Part shown: positions 17,070 to 42,934 of the stretch, in pieces | Layout of the letters: every line of letters starts with the position of its first letter | Numbering within the stretch: the first letter of the stretch is position 1 | Assembly (NCBI GenBank): GCA_947366545.1 | Contig: CANBAL010000002.1 | Span: 14,889 to 78,888 of the forward strand | Direction: 5' to 3' | DNA length: 64,000 nt | Origin: an uncultured Clostridia bacterium | Lineage (GTDB): Bacteria > Bacillota > Clostridia > Christensenellales > UBA1242 | The notes under the pieces: generated by a model | The model's input: the letters and a program-made list of their open reading frames with translations, nothing else | The model's database searches: none | Told to the model about the DNA's origin: nothing | Program-made: the position numbers and the translations under genes

Positions 17070-17099
17070 ATTATACCATAGTGGGGGGGGGATTGTCAA
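17070..17099 (-). promoter_or_regulatory. consensus sigma-A promoter with C9 tract in the spacer (candidate phase-variable)
   Basis: Minus strand: TTGACA (17099-17094), 18-nt spacer ATCCCCCCCCCACTATGG, TATAAT (17075-17070) with TGn extension. C9 run = 17083-17091. Confidence 0.75.
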
Positions 17100-17117
17100 T
17101 ACCCTTTTTTAGTTTTT

Positions 17118-17188
17118 TAGATTTCTCCGTTGCGCCCTTATGGGCTTCGGTCGAAATGACAAAAGGATGGGCGGTCGAAATGACAAAA
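17118..17188 (+). repeat. REP-like intergenic hairpin repeat, copy a
   Basis: TAGATTTCTCCG-[GCCC-ttat-GGGC]-TTCGGTCGAAATGACAAAAG, plus a second GGTCGAAATGACAAAAG. Related copies at 44548-44590 and 47399-47466. Confidence 0.85.
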
Positions 17189-17265
17189 GAGAGAAAGTAC
17201 GGGATGACGAGAGTGGATGGGACAAAGGGTGAAGAAAAGTATTATAAATACTTTGGCTAATTTGT

Positions 17266-17295
17266 TTGACAAAATAAGGGGCGAGGGAGTATCAT
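17266..17295 (+). promoter_or_regulatory. probable promoter of pheST
   Basis: TTGACA (17266-17271), 18-nt spacer, TATCAT (17290-17295). No T-box leader follows. Confidence 0.45.
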
Positions 17296-17319
17296 TAAAA
17301 CATATTTATAGGAGCGATT

Positions 17320-18339
17320 ATGAAAGAACAACTTTTGAAGATTAAAGAAGATGCACTTAAAGAGTTGGGCGGAGTGAAAACACTGACTGAACTTAACGAT
17401 TTAAGAGTGAAATATCTTGGAAAGGCAGGTGCCCTTACCGCGATTTTACGCGGTATGCGTGAGGTTGCGCCCGAGGACAGACCTATTATTGGTGCACTTG
17501 TAAACGAGGTGAGAGAGAGCCTTGAAAATGCGATAAAAGAAAGAGGAGAGAGCCTTGAAACCGAGGCATTAAATGCCCGTCTTGCAAGTGAGAGCGTAGA
17601 CATTACCGAGCCTAGCCGTGGGCAAGCGCGAGGTGCGTTGCATCCAGTGACCCGTGTGCTTGACAAACTTATTTCAAGTTGCGTTGACATGGGTTTTAGT
17701 GTTGTGCAAGGACCAGAAGTGGAAACAGATTATTACAACTTTGAGGCAATGAATATTCCTAAAAATCATCCTGCAAGAGATATGCAAGATTCTTTCTATA
17801 TTACCGACAGCATTCTGCTTAGAACACATACTTCACCTATGCAGGCAAGAGAACTTGAGGTGAGAAAACCACCTTTCAAAATTGTTGTGCCTGGGGCGAC
17901 TTATCGAAACGACAGCGACTCTACACACAGCCCTGTGTTCCACCAAATGGAAGGGCTGGTGGTTGACGAACATGTTTCTATGGCCGACCTTAAAATTATG
18001 CTTAATGAACTTATGAAAAGAGTGTTTGGCGAGGGAACAAAAACAAGATTTAGACCTGCCTTTTTCCCTTTTACTGAGCCAAGCATTGAACTTGATGTGA
18101 CTTGTCCAACCTGTCATGGTGAGGGTTGCAGAATCTGCAAGGGCACGGGTTGGCTTGAACTTTTAGGCGCTGGTGTGGTAAATCCAAAGGTGCTTGAAAT
18201 GAGTGGGGTGGACTCTAGGAAATACAAGGGATTTGCTTTTGGAATTGGTATCGAGCGTCTTGCCATGGTGCTTAATGGAGTGCCAGACCTAAGAACACTT
18301 TTCAAAAACGATATTAGATTTTTAAATCAGATGAGGTAG
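17320..18339 (+). CDS. pheS: phenylalanine--tRNA ligase alpha subunit
   Basis: 339 aa. Class II motifs (HPARDMQDSFY, FRPAFFPFTEPS, GFAFGIGIERLAM). Confidence 0.97.
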   Translation: MKEQLLKIKEDALKELGGVKTLTELNDLRVKYLGKAGALTAILRGMREVAPEDRPIIGALVNEVRESLENAIKERGESLETEALNARLASESVDITEPSRGQARGALHPVTRVLDKLISSCVDMGFSVVQGPEVETDYYNFEAMNIPKNHPARDMQDSFYITDSILLRTHTSPMQARELEVRKPPFKIVVPGATYRNDSDSTHSPVFHQMEGLVVDEHVSMADLKIMLNELMKRVFGEGTKTRFRPAFFPFTEPSIELDVTCPTCHGEGCRICKGTGWLELLGAGVVNPKVLEMSGVDSRKYKGFAFGIGIERLAMVLNGVPDLRTLFKNDIRFLNQMR

Positions 18340-18344
18340 GAAAT

Positions 18345-40669: not shown

Positions 40670-40679
40670 ATTCTCCTCT

Positions 40680-40715
40680 ATATATTGTGCCTAGTATGTG
40701 CATAATTCACACAAT
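40680..40715. repeat. site B: second copy of the site-A element (ATATATTGTGcCTAGTATGTGCATA...CACAAT)
   Basis: 24/25 identical to 29026-29050, same orientation. Outer dyad ATTGTG...CACAAT is kept and the inner right arm differs. Lies between the queA stop and the tgt RBS. Confidence 0.9.
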
Positions 40716-40724
40716 ATCTTGTAA

Positions 40725-41771
40725 TTATTCTTTATTTATGTAAAAATTGCTATCTCCAAAACTGAAGAAACGATATCTTTCTTTTACCGCTACATTATAA
40801 ATTCTCATGGTTTCATCATATCCTAAAAATGCGGCAACAAGCATTATAAGTGTGCTTTCTGGTAGGTGAAAATTGGTTATAAGTCCATCTACCACCTTAA
40901 ATTTATAACCGGGATAGATAAATATTTTTGTGTCTGTTTTCTGTGGGTGAATAATGCCCTGCTCATCTGCCGTACTCTCAAGCACCCTCACAGAGGTGGT
41001 GCCTACTGCAATGATGCGTCTTCCCTCTTTTTTGGCTTGATTGAGGAGTTTTGCGTTTTCCTCACTCATTTCGATGTATTCGCTATGCATATCATGATTT
41101 AAAATGTTATCTTCTTTAACTGGACGGAAGGTGCCAAGCCCGACATGAAGAAGAACTTCAACTATTTCTACACCCTTCGCTTTGATTTTTTCAAGAAGGG
41201 CAGGCGTGAAATGTAATCCTGCTGTTGGAGCGGCCGAAGAGCCCTCTATTTTAGAGTAAACCGTTTGGTATCTTTCCTTATCTTTTAATTTTTCATGTAT
41301 GTATGGTGGAAGTGGCATTGTGCCCACCTCGCTTAAGCGATGCTCAAAGGTGCCAACAAAATCAAATTCAATTAGACAACTGCCATAGTCATATTTTTCA
41401 AGTATAGTACAACTAAGTTTTTCGCTGAAAGTGATTTTTGTCCTCTCTTTAAGTCTTTTGAAAGGTTTTGCAATCACCTCCCATTTTTTAAGGTCAAGGC
41501 GTTTTTGCAGAAGTATCTCAATTTTTGCGCCCGTGTCTTTATAGCCAAAAAGCCTTGCTGGCAGAACGCGAGTGTTGTTTATAACAAGCACATCCCCTTT
41601 TTTGAGATAGTCCACAATATCATAAAAATGCTTATGTTCAATTTTGTCACTTTTCTTATGATAAACGAGGAGTCTAGAATTATCTCTTGGCTCTACCGGC
41701 GTCTGTGCTATGAGTTCCTCTGGCAAGTCATAATAGTAGGAACTTTTTAAAAGTAAATCTTTTTCTTTCAT
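40725..41771 (-). CDS. queA: S-adenosylmethionine:tRNA ribosyltransferase-isomerase
   Basis: YDLPEELIAQTPVEPRD, TAGLHFT, AVGTTSVRVLES. Confidence 0.97.
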   Translation of the reverse strand: MKEKDLLLKSSYYYDLPEELIAQTPVEPRDNSRLLVYHKKSDKIEHKHFYDIVDYLKKGDVLVINNTRVLPARLFGYKDTGAKIEILLQKRLDLKKWEVIAKPFKRLKERTKITFSEKLSCTILEKYDYGSCLIEFDFVGTFEHRLSEVGTMPLPPYIHEKLKDKERYQTVYSKIEGSSAAPTAGLHFTPALLEKIKAKGVEIVEVLLHVGLGTFRPVKEDNILNHDMHSEYIEMSEENAKLLNQAKKEGRRIIAVGTTSVRVLESTADEQGIIHPQKTDTKIFIYPGYKFKVVDGLITNFHLPESTLIMLVAAFLGYDETMRIYNVAVKERYRFFSFGDSNFYINKE

Positions 41772-41773
41772 AT

Positions 41774-42352
41774 TTAACTATTTTCTTGATTTAATTTAGG
41801 GTATGTAAACTTGCAGGTTTTTGAATAGATTTTATATGGGGCTTTTGCCCGATAAATTACCCGCTCTTCTTTTGGTATTTGAATTAATTTCTTTGCTCTA
41901 TCCATATGGAAAATTCCTTCCAAATGGTCGAGTTCGTGTGAAAGTACAGTGCATACAAATCCCTCAAAATTAGTTATAAAATCCCCCCCCCGCATATCTT
42001 GATATTTAATCCTCATGGCATAAGGGCGTTCTACAAGTCCAAAATTTAACATCCCGCTAAAACATGCTTCCCAGAATTCAGTTTTTCCGCATTGTGAAAT
42101 TATCTCAGGATTTATAAGTACTAGCCAATCTTTTTCTGGGTTTGGAGAACAATCGCTTGATGTGGATTTTATTACAACAATTCGTTTTGGAATGCCAAGT
42201 TGTATAGATGCCATTGCAAAACAACCATTATGTGTGCGACAATACTCTTTTACAATTTCTACATCTTGTTCAAGATTTTTATCTGGGAAATTCACCTTTG
42301 CTGACTTCTGCCGTAAGAATGCCTCATTTTCTGCGATTGTAATTGCTTCCAT
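41774..42352 (-). CDS. def: peptide deformylase (divergent paralog-like)
   Basis: IQLGIPKR, EACFS (EGCLS-like), HELDHLEG metal site. Contains an in-frame G9 tract. Confidence 0.82.
   Translation of the reverse strand: MEAITIAENEAFLRQKSAKVNFPDKNLEQDVEIVKEYCRTHNGCFAMASIQLGIPKRIVVIKSTSSDCSPNPEKDWLVLINPEIISQCGKTEFWEACFSGMLNFGLVERPYAMRIKYQDMRGGDFITNFEGFVCTVLSHELDHLEGIFHMDRAKKLIQIPKEERVIYRAKAPYKIYSKTCKFTYPKLNQENS
41983..41991 (-). repeat. G9 homopolymer (sense strand) inside def
   Basis: atg cgg ggg ggg gat encodes M-R-G-G-D, upstream of the HELDH motif. Confidence 0.95.
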
Positions 42353-42367
42353 TTTTCTCCTTTTTTA

Positions 42368-42934
42368 TTATTTGGTTAATGCTTTAAAATCAAATGTGAT
42401 TGGTTTTCCATTGGGTATTTCAAATGATAGATAATTGCCATCATTGGGAATGCCTTTAAAGTAACTCATTAAAATACAACCTACTCCACCATGAGATACA
42501 ATTAGTATATCATCATTTGGATGTTGTTTTAATTCATCAAGGAAGTTAAAAACTCTCTTTTCAACCTCCTTTATACTTTCAGCAAGTTTAAATTTTTGTT
42601 TAGAATTTATATTCCAAAACCCTAGAAAATCGAATTCACTTCGTGTCAAACCTTCAAATTCACCAAAATCTCTTTCTATAATTCTTTCATCAATTATTAT
42701 AGGGTTATTTCCTTTATAAATTATGTCGCAAGTCTGTCTTGCCCGCAATAAAGGGCTGCAAAAAACTTTTTTAAACTTTTTTCCTTTAATAGATTCTGCG
42801 GTTTGTTTTGCTTGCTCTATTCCTGTATTGTTTAATGGAAGGTCAACTCTTCCTTGACATTTAGGGTCTTTAATCCCCCCCCCGTTTCTATGTTCATTCC
42901 AGTCGGTTGAGCCATGTCTTACAAAATAGATCAT
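42368..42934 (-). CDS. histidine phosphatase family protein (phosphoglycerate mutase-like)
   Basis: [17 protein letters not shown] motif, VSHGG. Contains an in-frame G9 tract at codons 18-20. Confidence 0.87.
42875..42883 (-). repeat. G9 homopolymer (sense strand) inside the histidine phosphatase CDS
   Basis: aac ggg ggg ggg att encodes N-GGG-I, within an apparent insertion between the WN and QG family motifs. Confidence 0.95.

Follow-up and report, generated by a model that had tools for sequence, protein, structure and literature searches.

Five nine-nucleotide G/C runs at accessory genes of an uncultured Clostridia bacterium are probable poly-G contingency loci

The 64,000-nucleotide stretch of Clostridia DNA analysed here, hereafter the window, carries five G/C homopolymers of exactly nine nucleotides, which are probably hypermutable homopolymeric repeats, i.e. 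poly-G contingency loci. Phase variation in Clostridia and gut commensals has been studied almost entirely as DNA inversion, and most of the known switches by repeat slippage come from a small number of pathogens. The loci described here would extend a known mechanism to a new lineage, and their cytoplasmic targets are unusual. The host, most likely a member of the Clostridia, lives in the mouse or rat gut and forms endospores: spoIVB and spoIIIAA are encoded in the window, and relatives carry the spoIIIA operon. An initial annotation of the same DNA had compared the runs to Campylobacter and Helicobacter contingency loci. The evidence supports this interpretation, and none of the three outcomes that it had listed as contrary (fixed tract lengths, an even spread over core genes, or an origin in sequencing or polishing artefacts) occurred.

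Census of G/C runs

A run-length count over the whole window (37% G+C) recovers five G/C runs, at the positions and with the exact length initially reported:

Tract 1: 17083..17091, minus strand, C9 on the sense strand, within the 18-bp spacer of the g141 promoter
Tract 2: 23630..23638, minus strand, C9 on the sense strand, within the 19-bp spacer of the g167 promoter
Tract 3: 36479..36487, minus strand, G9 on the sense strand, codons 29-31 (Gly-Gly-Gly) of a serine hydrolase gene
Tract 4: 41983..41991, minus strand, G9 on the sense strand, codons 121-123 (Arg-Gly-Gly-Asp) of a deformylase paralog
Tract 5: 42875..42883, minus strand, G9 on the sense strand, codons 18-20 (Gly-Gly-Gly) of a histidine phosphatase gene

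The number of G/C runs declines smoothly up to length 5 (14 G and 15 C runs), lengths 6 to 8 are empty, and the next occupied length is 9; the annotated absence of further runs of at least 7 nt therefore holds and extends to runs of at least 6. A/T runs decay smoothly to a maximum of 8. Markov models of orders 1 to 4 predict 0.02-0.25 runs of at least 9 nt in the window, versus the five observed (Poisson P(>=5) < 1e-5), and with a ceiling of 0.25 they bear out the earlier rough estimate that the chance expectation lies well below one. A chance origin of the five runs is excluded, and the over-representation relative to base composition is that of homopolymeric G/C contingency loci. There are several independent loci, as in a phasome: five in 64 kb of the window and 2-4 per 15-21 kb in relatives.

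Tracts 1 and 2 read G9 on the plus strand and tracts 3, 4 and 5 read C9, and all five runs lie on the G-rich (leading) strand of their own replication arm. On the C-rich strand, all five follow the described pattern AA(C)T-C9-R, and on the G-rich strand, A(G)TT stands directly 3' of every run; the identical 16-mer CAACTCCCCCCCCCGC is present at tracts 2 and 3, as reported. The proposed similarity of flanks holds within the window but not in relatives, where flanks vary; it carries little weight, and the common flank is thus a tendency rather than a motif. The shared A(G)TT and the common strand would fit a sequence-specific function of the runs, as Gly3 loops or as protein-binding or structural DNA sites, and proteins tolerate Gly-Gly-Gly loops. 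Yet orthologs carry other residues at the tract sites (SKG, GRG, EGEK and NGE), GGG is used exclusively although glycine has four codons, and the flanks of relatives differ. Coincidence being excluded by the Markov models, an explanation by sequence-specific function or coincidence is extremely improbable.

Promoter tracts and orphan membrane proteins

Tracts 1 and 2 lie within the spacers between the -35 and -10 elements of two promoters:

g141 promoter: 17070..17099, minus strand, -35 TTGACA at 17099-17094, 18-bp spacer, extended -10 TGgTATAAT with the -10 at 17075-17070
g141: 16618..17043, minus strand, orphan of 141 aa, predicted lipoprotein with lipobox IAGC (Cys26) and a C-terminal hydrophobic anchor by hydropathy
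g167 promoter: 23617..23647, minus strand, -35 TTGACA at 23647-23642, 19-bp spacer, extended -10 TGtTATAAT with the -10 at 23622-23617
g167: 23092..23595, minus strand, orphan of 167 aa with two hydrophobic segments (11-40 and 117-137)

Promoter scanning, alignment and homolog search confirm the initial placement of both tracts in promoters of orphan membrane proteins. The g141 promoter shows 12/12 matches plus the TG, and alignment reveals a core of ~38 nt common to it and the g167 promoter. The g141 protein has no Pfam or NCBIfam family and no homolog among 5.8 billion proteins. A single homolog of g167 is known (P0122, 45% identity), in which the first 35 aa are almost unchanged and identity over the remainder is ~30%. 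The homologous promoter of L010, ahead of the 45%-identical g167 homolog, also contains C9. Among the few comparators, no length variants of the promoter tracts were seen: G9 is retained at tract 1 in run X9 (357-nt contig, 4 mismatches), C9 is present in L010, and one strain, 93% identical and from run X3, lacks the tract, with GGGG only at the tract 2 site.

In both promoters, C9 accounts for half of the distance from a perfect -35 to an extended -10. According to the proposed mechanism, its length would set promoter spacing, at present 18 and 19 bp versus an optimum of 17, so that slippage should step transcription of the orphan membrane proteins up or down. No obvious inverted repeats flank the two promoters on inspection by eye, and the sole recombinase in the window is Xer-like and located at the sign switch of the GC skew.

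Coding tracts in small accessory enzyme genes

Tracts 3-5 lie in frame within three coding sequences:

Ser_hydrolase (PF06821) gene: 35966..36571, minus strand, 201 aa, reduced to 33-36 aa by a 1- or 2-base tract change
Peptide deformylase paralog (PF01327): 41774..42352, minus strand, 192 aa, under the NCBIfam equivalog cut-off
His_Phos_1 (PF00300) gene: 42368..42934, minus strand, 188 aa, reduced to 20-34 aa by a 1- or 2-base tract change

The initial annotation had named the three carriers correctly. All three genes are ON in the window; in the deformylase paralog, a 1- or 2-base tract change leaves 125-127 aa without the HELDH motif. As also claimed, no tract lies in a core housekeeping gene: all five are in or ahead of small accessory genes that are variably present among relatives, and an even spread over core genes is not seen within the window. 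The deformylase paralog gene, for instance, is absent from a strain in run X3, in which 41776 is joined to 42382. Behind the two tract-bearing promoters lie genes for a predicted lipoprotein and a membrane protein; the coding targets are three cytoplasmic-type hydrolases, for which no convincing defence match was found. Small cytoplasmic hydrolases are atypical as contingency targets, which are typically surface or restriction-modification genes. The sequence GGAGGCGGT is an interrupted form of the G9 tract.

On the sense strand, G9 keeps the frame and G7, G8, G10 or G11 truncates the protein soon past the tract, so that each enzyme gene may act as an independent, reversible ON/OFF switch.

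Tract-length variation between near-identical contigs

Comparators were assembled contigs from public runs. Nine contigs of one RuvB clone (3.6-21 kb each), which stem from one run group with adjacent accession numbers and do not count as independent samples, differ only by one SNP and by one-G changes at two tracts, amounting to five tract differences versus one SNP over ~78 kb compared. In the cupin-like gene, five contigs carry G9 (113 aa) and four carry G8 (80 aa); in the Ser_hydrolase gene, five have G9 (182 aa) and one has G10 (31+131 aa). Both tracts thereby flip their gene between intact and truncated. Similarly, the sole difference between L006 and L007 in 11,873 nt is G8 versus G9 in one gene of 121 aa. 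Four tracts occur in 14.9 kb of L034; two are ON, and two are OFF with the frames past them still open. For the window tracts themselves, tract 4 is C11 in run X7 with zero other mismatches over 224 nt, tract 5 is C8 in run X3, and tract 3, followed through its ortholog only, is G9 or G10, ON or OFF, in relatives. Tract length thus varies far more often than ordinary sites between near-identical genomes, tracts 1 and 2 apart, and the lengths are not fixed.

Homopolymers are error-prone, Illumina assemblies can miscall their lengths, and the data inspected are contigs, not reads. Together with the equal length of all five window runs and the break of the identical strain's X1 contigs at tract 5, this would suit an explanation in which the runs or their length differences are homopolymer-calling errors of sequencing, assembly or polishing. 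Such an origin is nevertheless scarcely credible. Tracts are found again at orthologous positions in assemblies made independently, SPAdes-style and Logan, from different studies, which rules out an artefact of one assembly; the G8 allele is identical in four separate runs; and the tracts keep three window reading frames intact. Moreover, in a sister species whose RuvB is 90% identical and whose contigs come from the same kinds of assembly, ten strains (16-21 kb each, all over the same region) show no G/C run of at least 7 nt.

A further explanation places the effect at the RNA level, where RNA polymerase slippage or ribosomal frameshifting would yield two protein forms or rescue out-of-frame alleles, so that DNA length changes would matter little. 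Runs of at least 9 identical bases are known RNA polymerase slippage sites, as in the poly(A) tracts of Buchnera (PMC2831843), and OFF alleles with open downstream frames are frequent. Against such recoding, the alternative frames end within 1-15 codons and encode nothing recognisable, and the two promoter tracts, being upstream of the predicted transcription start, are not expected in mRNA. No RNA contig extends across any tract, RNA run X15 ending before tract 4. We consider recoding very improbable.

Gain and loss of tracts among relatives

Tracts are gained and lost between orthologs. Tract 4 is absent from the L034 ortholog, and the L005 ortholog of tract 5 reads TCAAAAGGA and therefore has no tract there. 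The sequence GGGGAGGGG in L006 corresponds to G9 in L011, and one tract was born through a single A-to-G change. The carrier genes are likewise gained and lost between relatives, and the small-gene cassettes seen encode NUDIX, histidine phosphatase, serine hydrolase, a cupin-like protein and the deformylase paralog.

This turnover bears on whether the tracts, if slippage-prone, are used at all. They could be neutral by-products, left by a mutational bias of the lineage or by poor repair of G:C runs, and survive only in dispensable accessory genes that drift in and out of frame toward pseudogenes. The coming and going of tracts between close relatives and of the carrier genes themselves, the commonness of OFF alleles, and the nature of the targets, small cytoplasmic enzymes without obvious bet-hedging need, all favour this explanation, as do two tracts in mid-gene position (codon 121 of 192 in the deformylase paralog and codon ~60 of 113 in the cupin-like gene). 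However, past OFF tracts the frames remain open throughout, which makes these OFF states recent or reversible, and the first 30 codons hold most coding tracts. Both intergenic window tracts and the L010 homolog sit exactly in the -35/-10 spacer, and the C9 promoter is conserved although its protein has diverged to 45% identity. Neutral, unused tracts are therefore rather unlikely.

Proposed mechanism and implications

For poly-G contingency loci, the presumed cause of the length differences is slippage: during replication, nascent and template strands would mispair in the G:C run, and a base pair would be gained or lost far more often than elsewhere. Reversibility within a lineage may follow, with putative switching rates and a putative bet-hedging benefit. 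Repeat tracts mutate at 100-10,000 times the basal rate (PMC11868660). Among the window genes scanned (64 kb only), neither mutS nor mutL was found. In C. jejuni and H. pylori, absence of the MutS1/MutL mismatch-repair pathway probably contributes to poly-G instability.

A wider reading combines these features into a clade of rodent-gut, spore-forming Clostridia with an unusually dense G9 'phasome', mainly of hydrolase cassettes. Its targets may be small cytoplasmic hydrolases in interchangeable cassettes rather than surface antigens, and its slots may be fixed, between ruvB, queA, tgt, rny and a PadR-family gene, near the sign switch of the GC skew. Nearly all cassette genes may share the same ON length, (GGG)3, with the G run on the leading strand, and the function is possibly phase-variable metabolism or nucleotide housekeeping, or a counter-measure against phages or toxins. 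Taken with all its parts on slot, length, strand and function, this reading is tentative and somewhat doubtful; if true, a commensal would possess contingency genes of a new functional class.

Confirmation of the switches themselves would mean that spore-forming gut Firmicutes also use poly-G switches, at high local density, that ordinary-looking cytoplasmic enzymes can carry them, and that single substitutions joining two short G runs give birth to them. In metagenome-assembled genomes, the sample would decide whether switch genes look intact or broken, and strain-tracking and pangenome analyses would miscount such genes. The ON/OFF pattern is also a potential fast-evolving marker of selection in the mouse gut.

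Comparison with known phase-variation systems

One of the closest likenesses is to the poly-G/C loci of C. jejuni and Helicobacter pylori, with which the present loci share a low-G+C genome, many G/C homopolymers of modal length nine, tracts in reading frames, often near the 5' end, with ON/OFF frameshifts, and tract variation between otherwise identical genomes. C. jejuni NCTC11168 has 29 poly-G/C loci (PMC4965091). In C. jejuni, the modal tract length is nine, G8 being insertion-biased and G11 deletion-biased (PMC3401435); here, nine is the usual ON length and probably the same balance point of insertion and deletion biases. Unlike these pathogens, the host is Gram-positive, forms endospores and lives in the rodent gut, and its coding tracts lie in genes for small cytoplasmic hydrolases and a deformylase paralog instead of capsule, LOS, flagellar-modification and restriction-modification genes. 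Local density is much higher (five per 64 kb here, four per 15 kb in L034).

Homopolymers in promoter spacers are known from porA/opc of Neisseria meningitidis and vlp of Mycoplasma hyorhinis; related cases are the fim poly-C of Bordetella and the tpr poly-G of Treponema pallidum. As in porA/opc and vlp, a G:C run lies between -35 and -10 and its length sets the spacing, with a graded transcription of membrane or surface genes that is here predicted. In contrast to porA/opc and vlp, the promoters match the sigma-A consensus perfectly and add an extended -10, a combination that may be tolerant of poor spacing, the proteins downstream are orphans, and the few comparators show no promoter-tract length variants.

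The Clostridioides difficile switches (cwpV, flgB, cmrRST, pdcB/pdcC) occur in the same bacterial class and have the same outcome, ON/OFF expression that is stochastic and reversible, as it would be here; their targets also include non-surface genes (PMC11868660). Their mechanism is site-specific inversion by a recombinase, whereas the present loci would switch by repeat slippage and have no obvious inverted repeats or invertase at the tracts. In the papers searched, phase variation in Clostridia proceeds only through DNA inversion and poly-G switches are not described, in agreement with the earlier remark that such loci are not known to have been described for spore-forming Clostridia.

Finally, the loci resemble the poly-A of B. 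subtilis swrA, the poly-A of L. monocytogenes inlA and the C8/C7 of group A Streptococcus mga, in which a homopolymer in a coding sequence undergoes reversible, gene-inactivating indels (PMC2831843; PMC11868660). Those are isolated loci, mostly A/T runs of 7-8 close to chance expectation in AT-rich DNA, whereas the window contains a set of G/C runs of nine that composition does not explain.

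Isolated nine-nucleotide G/C runs

The homopolymer census of the window, whose G+C content is 37.1%, recovered all five G/C runs of exactly 9 nt claimed in the initial annotation. The claimed absence of further long runs holds as well, since no other G/C run exceeds 5 nt.

The five 9-nt runs found by the homopolymer census
Tract 1, 17083-17091, G9 on the + strand, promoter of g141
Tract 2, 23630-23638, G9 on the + strand, promoter of g167
Tract 3, 36479-36487, C9 on the + strand, Ser_hydrolase gene (PF06821), codons 29-31
Tract 4, 41983-41991, C9 on the + strand, peptide-deformylase paralog (PF01327), codons 121-123
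Tract 5, 42875-42883, C9 on the + strand, His_Phos_1 gene (PF00300), codons 18-20

G/C runs become steadily rarer from length 1 to length 5, and the next length found is 9; A/T runs show a smooth decay up to 8. Markov models of order 1 to 4 predict 0.02-0.25 runs of at least 9 nt in the window, with or without the tracts masked during parameter estimation, in agreement with the earlier estimate of well below one, and five such runs cannot be chance. The gap between 5 and 9 fits a threshold beyond which runs would expand quickly to an equilibrium length. General surveys find poly-G/C runs under-represented in prokaryotic genes (PMC2831843). That the tract feature is real and non-random is well supported. 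The similar flanks (AA(C)T-C9-R) and the identical 16-mer at tracts 2 and 3, both described initially, are present in the window; the flank is not conserved in relatives, and its reading as a recognition site was rejected on this ground.

Promoter tracts

Tracts 1 and 2 are intergenic, and on the - strand each forms the centre of a promoter.

Promoters containing tracts 1 and 2
Promoter 1 (tract 1), - strand, GGGTATTGACAA-T-C9-ACTATGG-TATAAT, from which g141 (16618-17043) is read
Promoter 2 (tract 2), - strand, GGGTATTGACAA-CT-C9-GCTATGT-TATAAT, from which g167 (23092-23595) is read

Promoter 1 scores 12/12 on the consensus scan. Both promoters have identical hexamers and a TG extended -10, the spacer measuring 18 bp in promoter 1 and 19 bp in promoter 2, and they have a nearly identical core of ~38 nt in common. 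Neither g141 nor g167 matches a Pfam or NCBIfam family. A search of 5.8 billion proteins gave a single homolog of g167 (locus L010, 45% identity) and none of g141. The g141 product has a hydrophobic segment at its C-terminus and, with lipobox IAGC, a lipoprotein signal; that of g167 has two hydrophobic segments. Paralogy of the two was dropped, none being detectable despite the common promoter and similar architecture. A phage 'moron' origin is unsupported, viral contigs scanned for g141, g167 and the promoter giving no match.

Tract 1 is kept as G9 in public sequencing run X9, and the tract 2 site of a 93%-identical strain reads GGGG only. Promoter 2 recurs in L010, C9 and 19-bp spacer included, ahead of a protein only 45% identical to that of g167. 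The promoter pattern was otherwise found in the metagenome scan in nine unrelated promoters only, all with C6 or C7. A serious, if rather improbable, rival explanation is that the tracts are neutral slippage debris in dispensable genes. This would account for the odd targets, but leaves unexplained both the exact placement in promoter spacers and the conservation of a C9 promoter over a fast-diverging protein.

A sub-threshold preQ1-II riboswitch match at 17041-17121 (-) covers promoter 1 and the g141 5' UTR, and queA and tgt also lie in the window. Scoring 25 bits where the Rfam gathering score is 47 (E 0.056), it was taken as spurious and is probably caused by the C run. In run X1, one contig of depth 9 links position 17114 to position 23630 of the opposite strand. 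The joint may reflect either an assembly effect at the G run or a related strain with a third copy of the promoter core. Just upstream of promoter 1, at 17113-17190, lies a short interspersed repeat, TTTTAGATTTCTCCG...GGTCGAAATGACAAA (last unit twice), which recurs at 47395-47467, between a SpoU-methylase gene and rplT; L010 has a related copy (120-300) inserted directly upstream of its C9 promoter. Contig depth of the repeat in X1 is ~107x versus 3-9x for neighbouring sequence, which indicates many copies.

Coding tracts

Tracts 3 to 5 read as G9 in the sense direction and are in frame. As computed from the reading frames, a change of one or two bases in any of them truncates the product: Ser_hydrolase to 33-36 aa, the deformylase paralog to 125-127 aa with loss of the HELDH metal site, and the His_Phos_1 phosphatase to 20-34 aa. 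RNA-level recoding is very improbable as the explanation of the tracts; it may act as an added layer, but it is inapplicable to the promoter tracts.

The deformylase paralog scores below the NCBIfam equivalog cut-off. It may be transcribed, since X15, a run labelled probable RNA, contains a 151-nt contig identical to 41805-41955 within the gene; this contig ends 28 nt before tract 4. The scan of genome contigs for the histidine phosphatase gave a sole match, a 37%-identical gene in an uncultured Bacilli MAG. A role in a defence system is not supported, the PADLOC matches being weak and partial.

Tract-length variation

Whether tract lengths are fixed was one of the tests proposed initially, and between the assemblies compared they are not: G8, G9 and G10 occur among relatives, C11 at tract 4 and C8 at tract 5. 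The strongest evidence for hypermutability comes from contigs of relatives. A RuvB protein 92% identical to that of the window (P0014) is encoded on many contigs; those shown come, all but one, from runs with neighbouring accession numbers. Nine of them (3.6-21 kb each) are identical to each other except in three places.

Differences among the nine P0014 contigs
SNP, in one contig only
Cupin-like gene tract, G9 in five contigs (113 aa) and G8 in four (80 aa)
Ser_hydrolase tract, G9 in five contigs (182 aa) and G10 in one (31 + 131 aa)

This gives 5 tract differences in 13 tract comparisons versus one substitution in ~78 kb compared, a rough figure because the samples are not independent. The excess fits the 100 to 10,000-fold quoted for repeat tracts (PMC11868660).

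Over 11,873 nt, loci L006 and L007, from different samples, differ by a single G in the tract of a 121-aa gene: with G8 the gene is OFF (truncated by tract length) in L006, and with G9 it is ON (frame intact) in L007. Locus L034 has two tracts at G9, which leave the cupin-like gene and a NUDIX gene ON, and two at G10, with a second NUDIX gene and Ser_hydrolase OFF, all four within 14.9 kb. Downstream of its OFF tracts the frames are still open, a feature that neutral debris, again, leaves unexplained, as it does the 5'-end bias of the tracts. In the relatives compared, the Ser_hydrolase tract occupies the same codon position as tract 3.

Comparison with low-coverage Logan contigs of public runs covers tracts 1, 2, 4 and 5. 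In run X7, a 226-nt contig matches 41793-42016 exactly but for tract 4, which is longer by two C (C11, OFF), and a 95%-identical contig of run X3 has C8 at tract 5 (OFF). Recurrence of the tracts across independent assemblies, and of one same variant in four runs, makes a sequencing or assembly artefact unlikely. Both the run statistics and the variable orthologs contradict chance or a fixed sequence function.

Tract birth and distribution

Orthologs often lack the tract at unchanged sequence length, a turnover for which neutral debris would also account.

Tract sites with and without the run
Histidine phosphatase, AAC-G9-ATT in the window, AAT TCA AAA GGA ATA in L005
Deformylase, RGGD in the window, NGET in L034
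121-aa gene, DGGG in L007, EGEK in L005
Cupin-like gene, GGGGAGGGG in L006, G9 in L011 (genomes 98.5% identical)

As the last pair shows, one A-to-G substitution joining two G4 runs can suffice for tract birth. Tracts are missing from L002-L004, the closest relative sampled (RuvB 98%), as these cassettes are absent there. In the same region of a sister species with 32-33% G+C (RuvB 90%), G/C runs of at least 7 nt are absent from all ten strains. The phenomenon is thus specific to a narrow clade rather than general in low-GC Clostridia.

Genomic context

The window comes from the core chromosome of an endospore former and contains lysS/asnS, obg, gap, tig, clpPX, pheST, thiI, argR, recN, spoIVB, serS, rny, tgt, queA, ruvABC, infC-rpmI-rplT, spoIIIAA, efp, truB and infB. 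GC skew changes from ~+0.17 to ~-0.10 within 30000-38000, switching at about 34-35 kb, where gene orientation also switches from + to -; the window therefore seems to span a replication terminus. The G runs of all five tracts lie on the G-rich (leading) strand of their arm. The organism is a probable member of the Clostridia. The public runs with words in common with the window come from gut metagenomes of mouse and rat, and the window's RuvB, ArgR and PheS have no exact match in public assemblies, so the strain is barely sampled.

The tract-bearing genes are accessory, as had been claimed. The ruvB-queA gap (41774-42934) is a swap site for small cassettes, which differ among relatives with 92-99% RuvB identity (loci L002-L009, L011 and L030-L034 compared).

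Cassettes found between ruvB and queA
DUF3201
Cupin-like gene
Cupin-like gene and His_Phos
Ser_hydrolase paralog
NUDIX, cupin-like gene and deformylase

A strain in run X3 joins 41776 to 42382, so that the deformylase gene is exactly absent. A second swap site extends from tgt through rny to a PadR-family gene (NUDIX, a metallo-beta-lactamase-fold gene, Ser_hydrolase, DapB_N). At about 13450-14260 of the sister species loci (L035-L044), a 268-aa metallo-beta-lactamase-fold gene with a Pfam Anti-Pycsar_Apyc1 match lies between tgt and rny; it is intact in 5/10 strains and split in 5/10, with no homopolymer tract involved, and IS-family transposase genes come and go beside rny. Elsewhere in the window are a Xer-like tyrosine recombinase gene (27938-28975) and, conserved beside serS, a 319-aa protein without a Pfam family (30440-31399). 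At its C-terminus the latter weakly matches oligonucleotide cyclases (PADLOC 'Cyclase', E 8e-5), and its counterparts in relatives have a weak CD_NTase_C match.

Mechanism and comparison with known systems

Slipped-strand mispairing at the G:C tracts is the best-supported reading. Slippage would switch translation of the three enzyme genes ON and OFF and exert graded transcriptional control over the two membrane-protein genes. The value of nine at all five tracts likely has two causes, the in-frame length and a mutational equilibrium as in C. jejuni. The in-frame length is G9 in nearly every gene examined, the exception being the Ser_hydrolase of L005, where a different flank makes G10 the ON length. 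Nine is also the modal tract length of C. jejuni, G8 tending to gain and G11 to lose, tendencies that the authors put down to mutational drivers (PMC3401435).

Poly-G switches in Clostridia were not described in the literature searched, where phase variation in this class is reported for invertible elements only. The window would thus present a known mechanism in a lineage and in gene classes for which no prior description was found. The system is set apart from those of C. jejuni and H. pylori by its host, a Gram-positive, spore-forming commensal, and by its coding targets, which are cytoplasmic hydrolases. As a set, the five tracts nevertheless share the structural and comparative properties of poly-G/C contingency loci, consistent with the likeness to Campylobacter and Helicobacter proposed at the outset. 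The system is predicted to work like the loci of C. jejuni and H. pylori, and its two promoter tracts, by analogy, like the promoter-spacer homopolymers of Neisseria and Mycoplasma.
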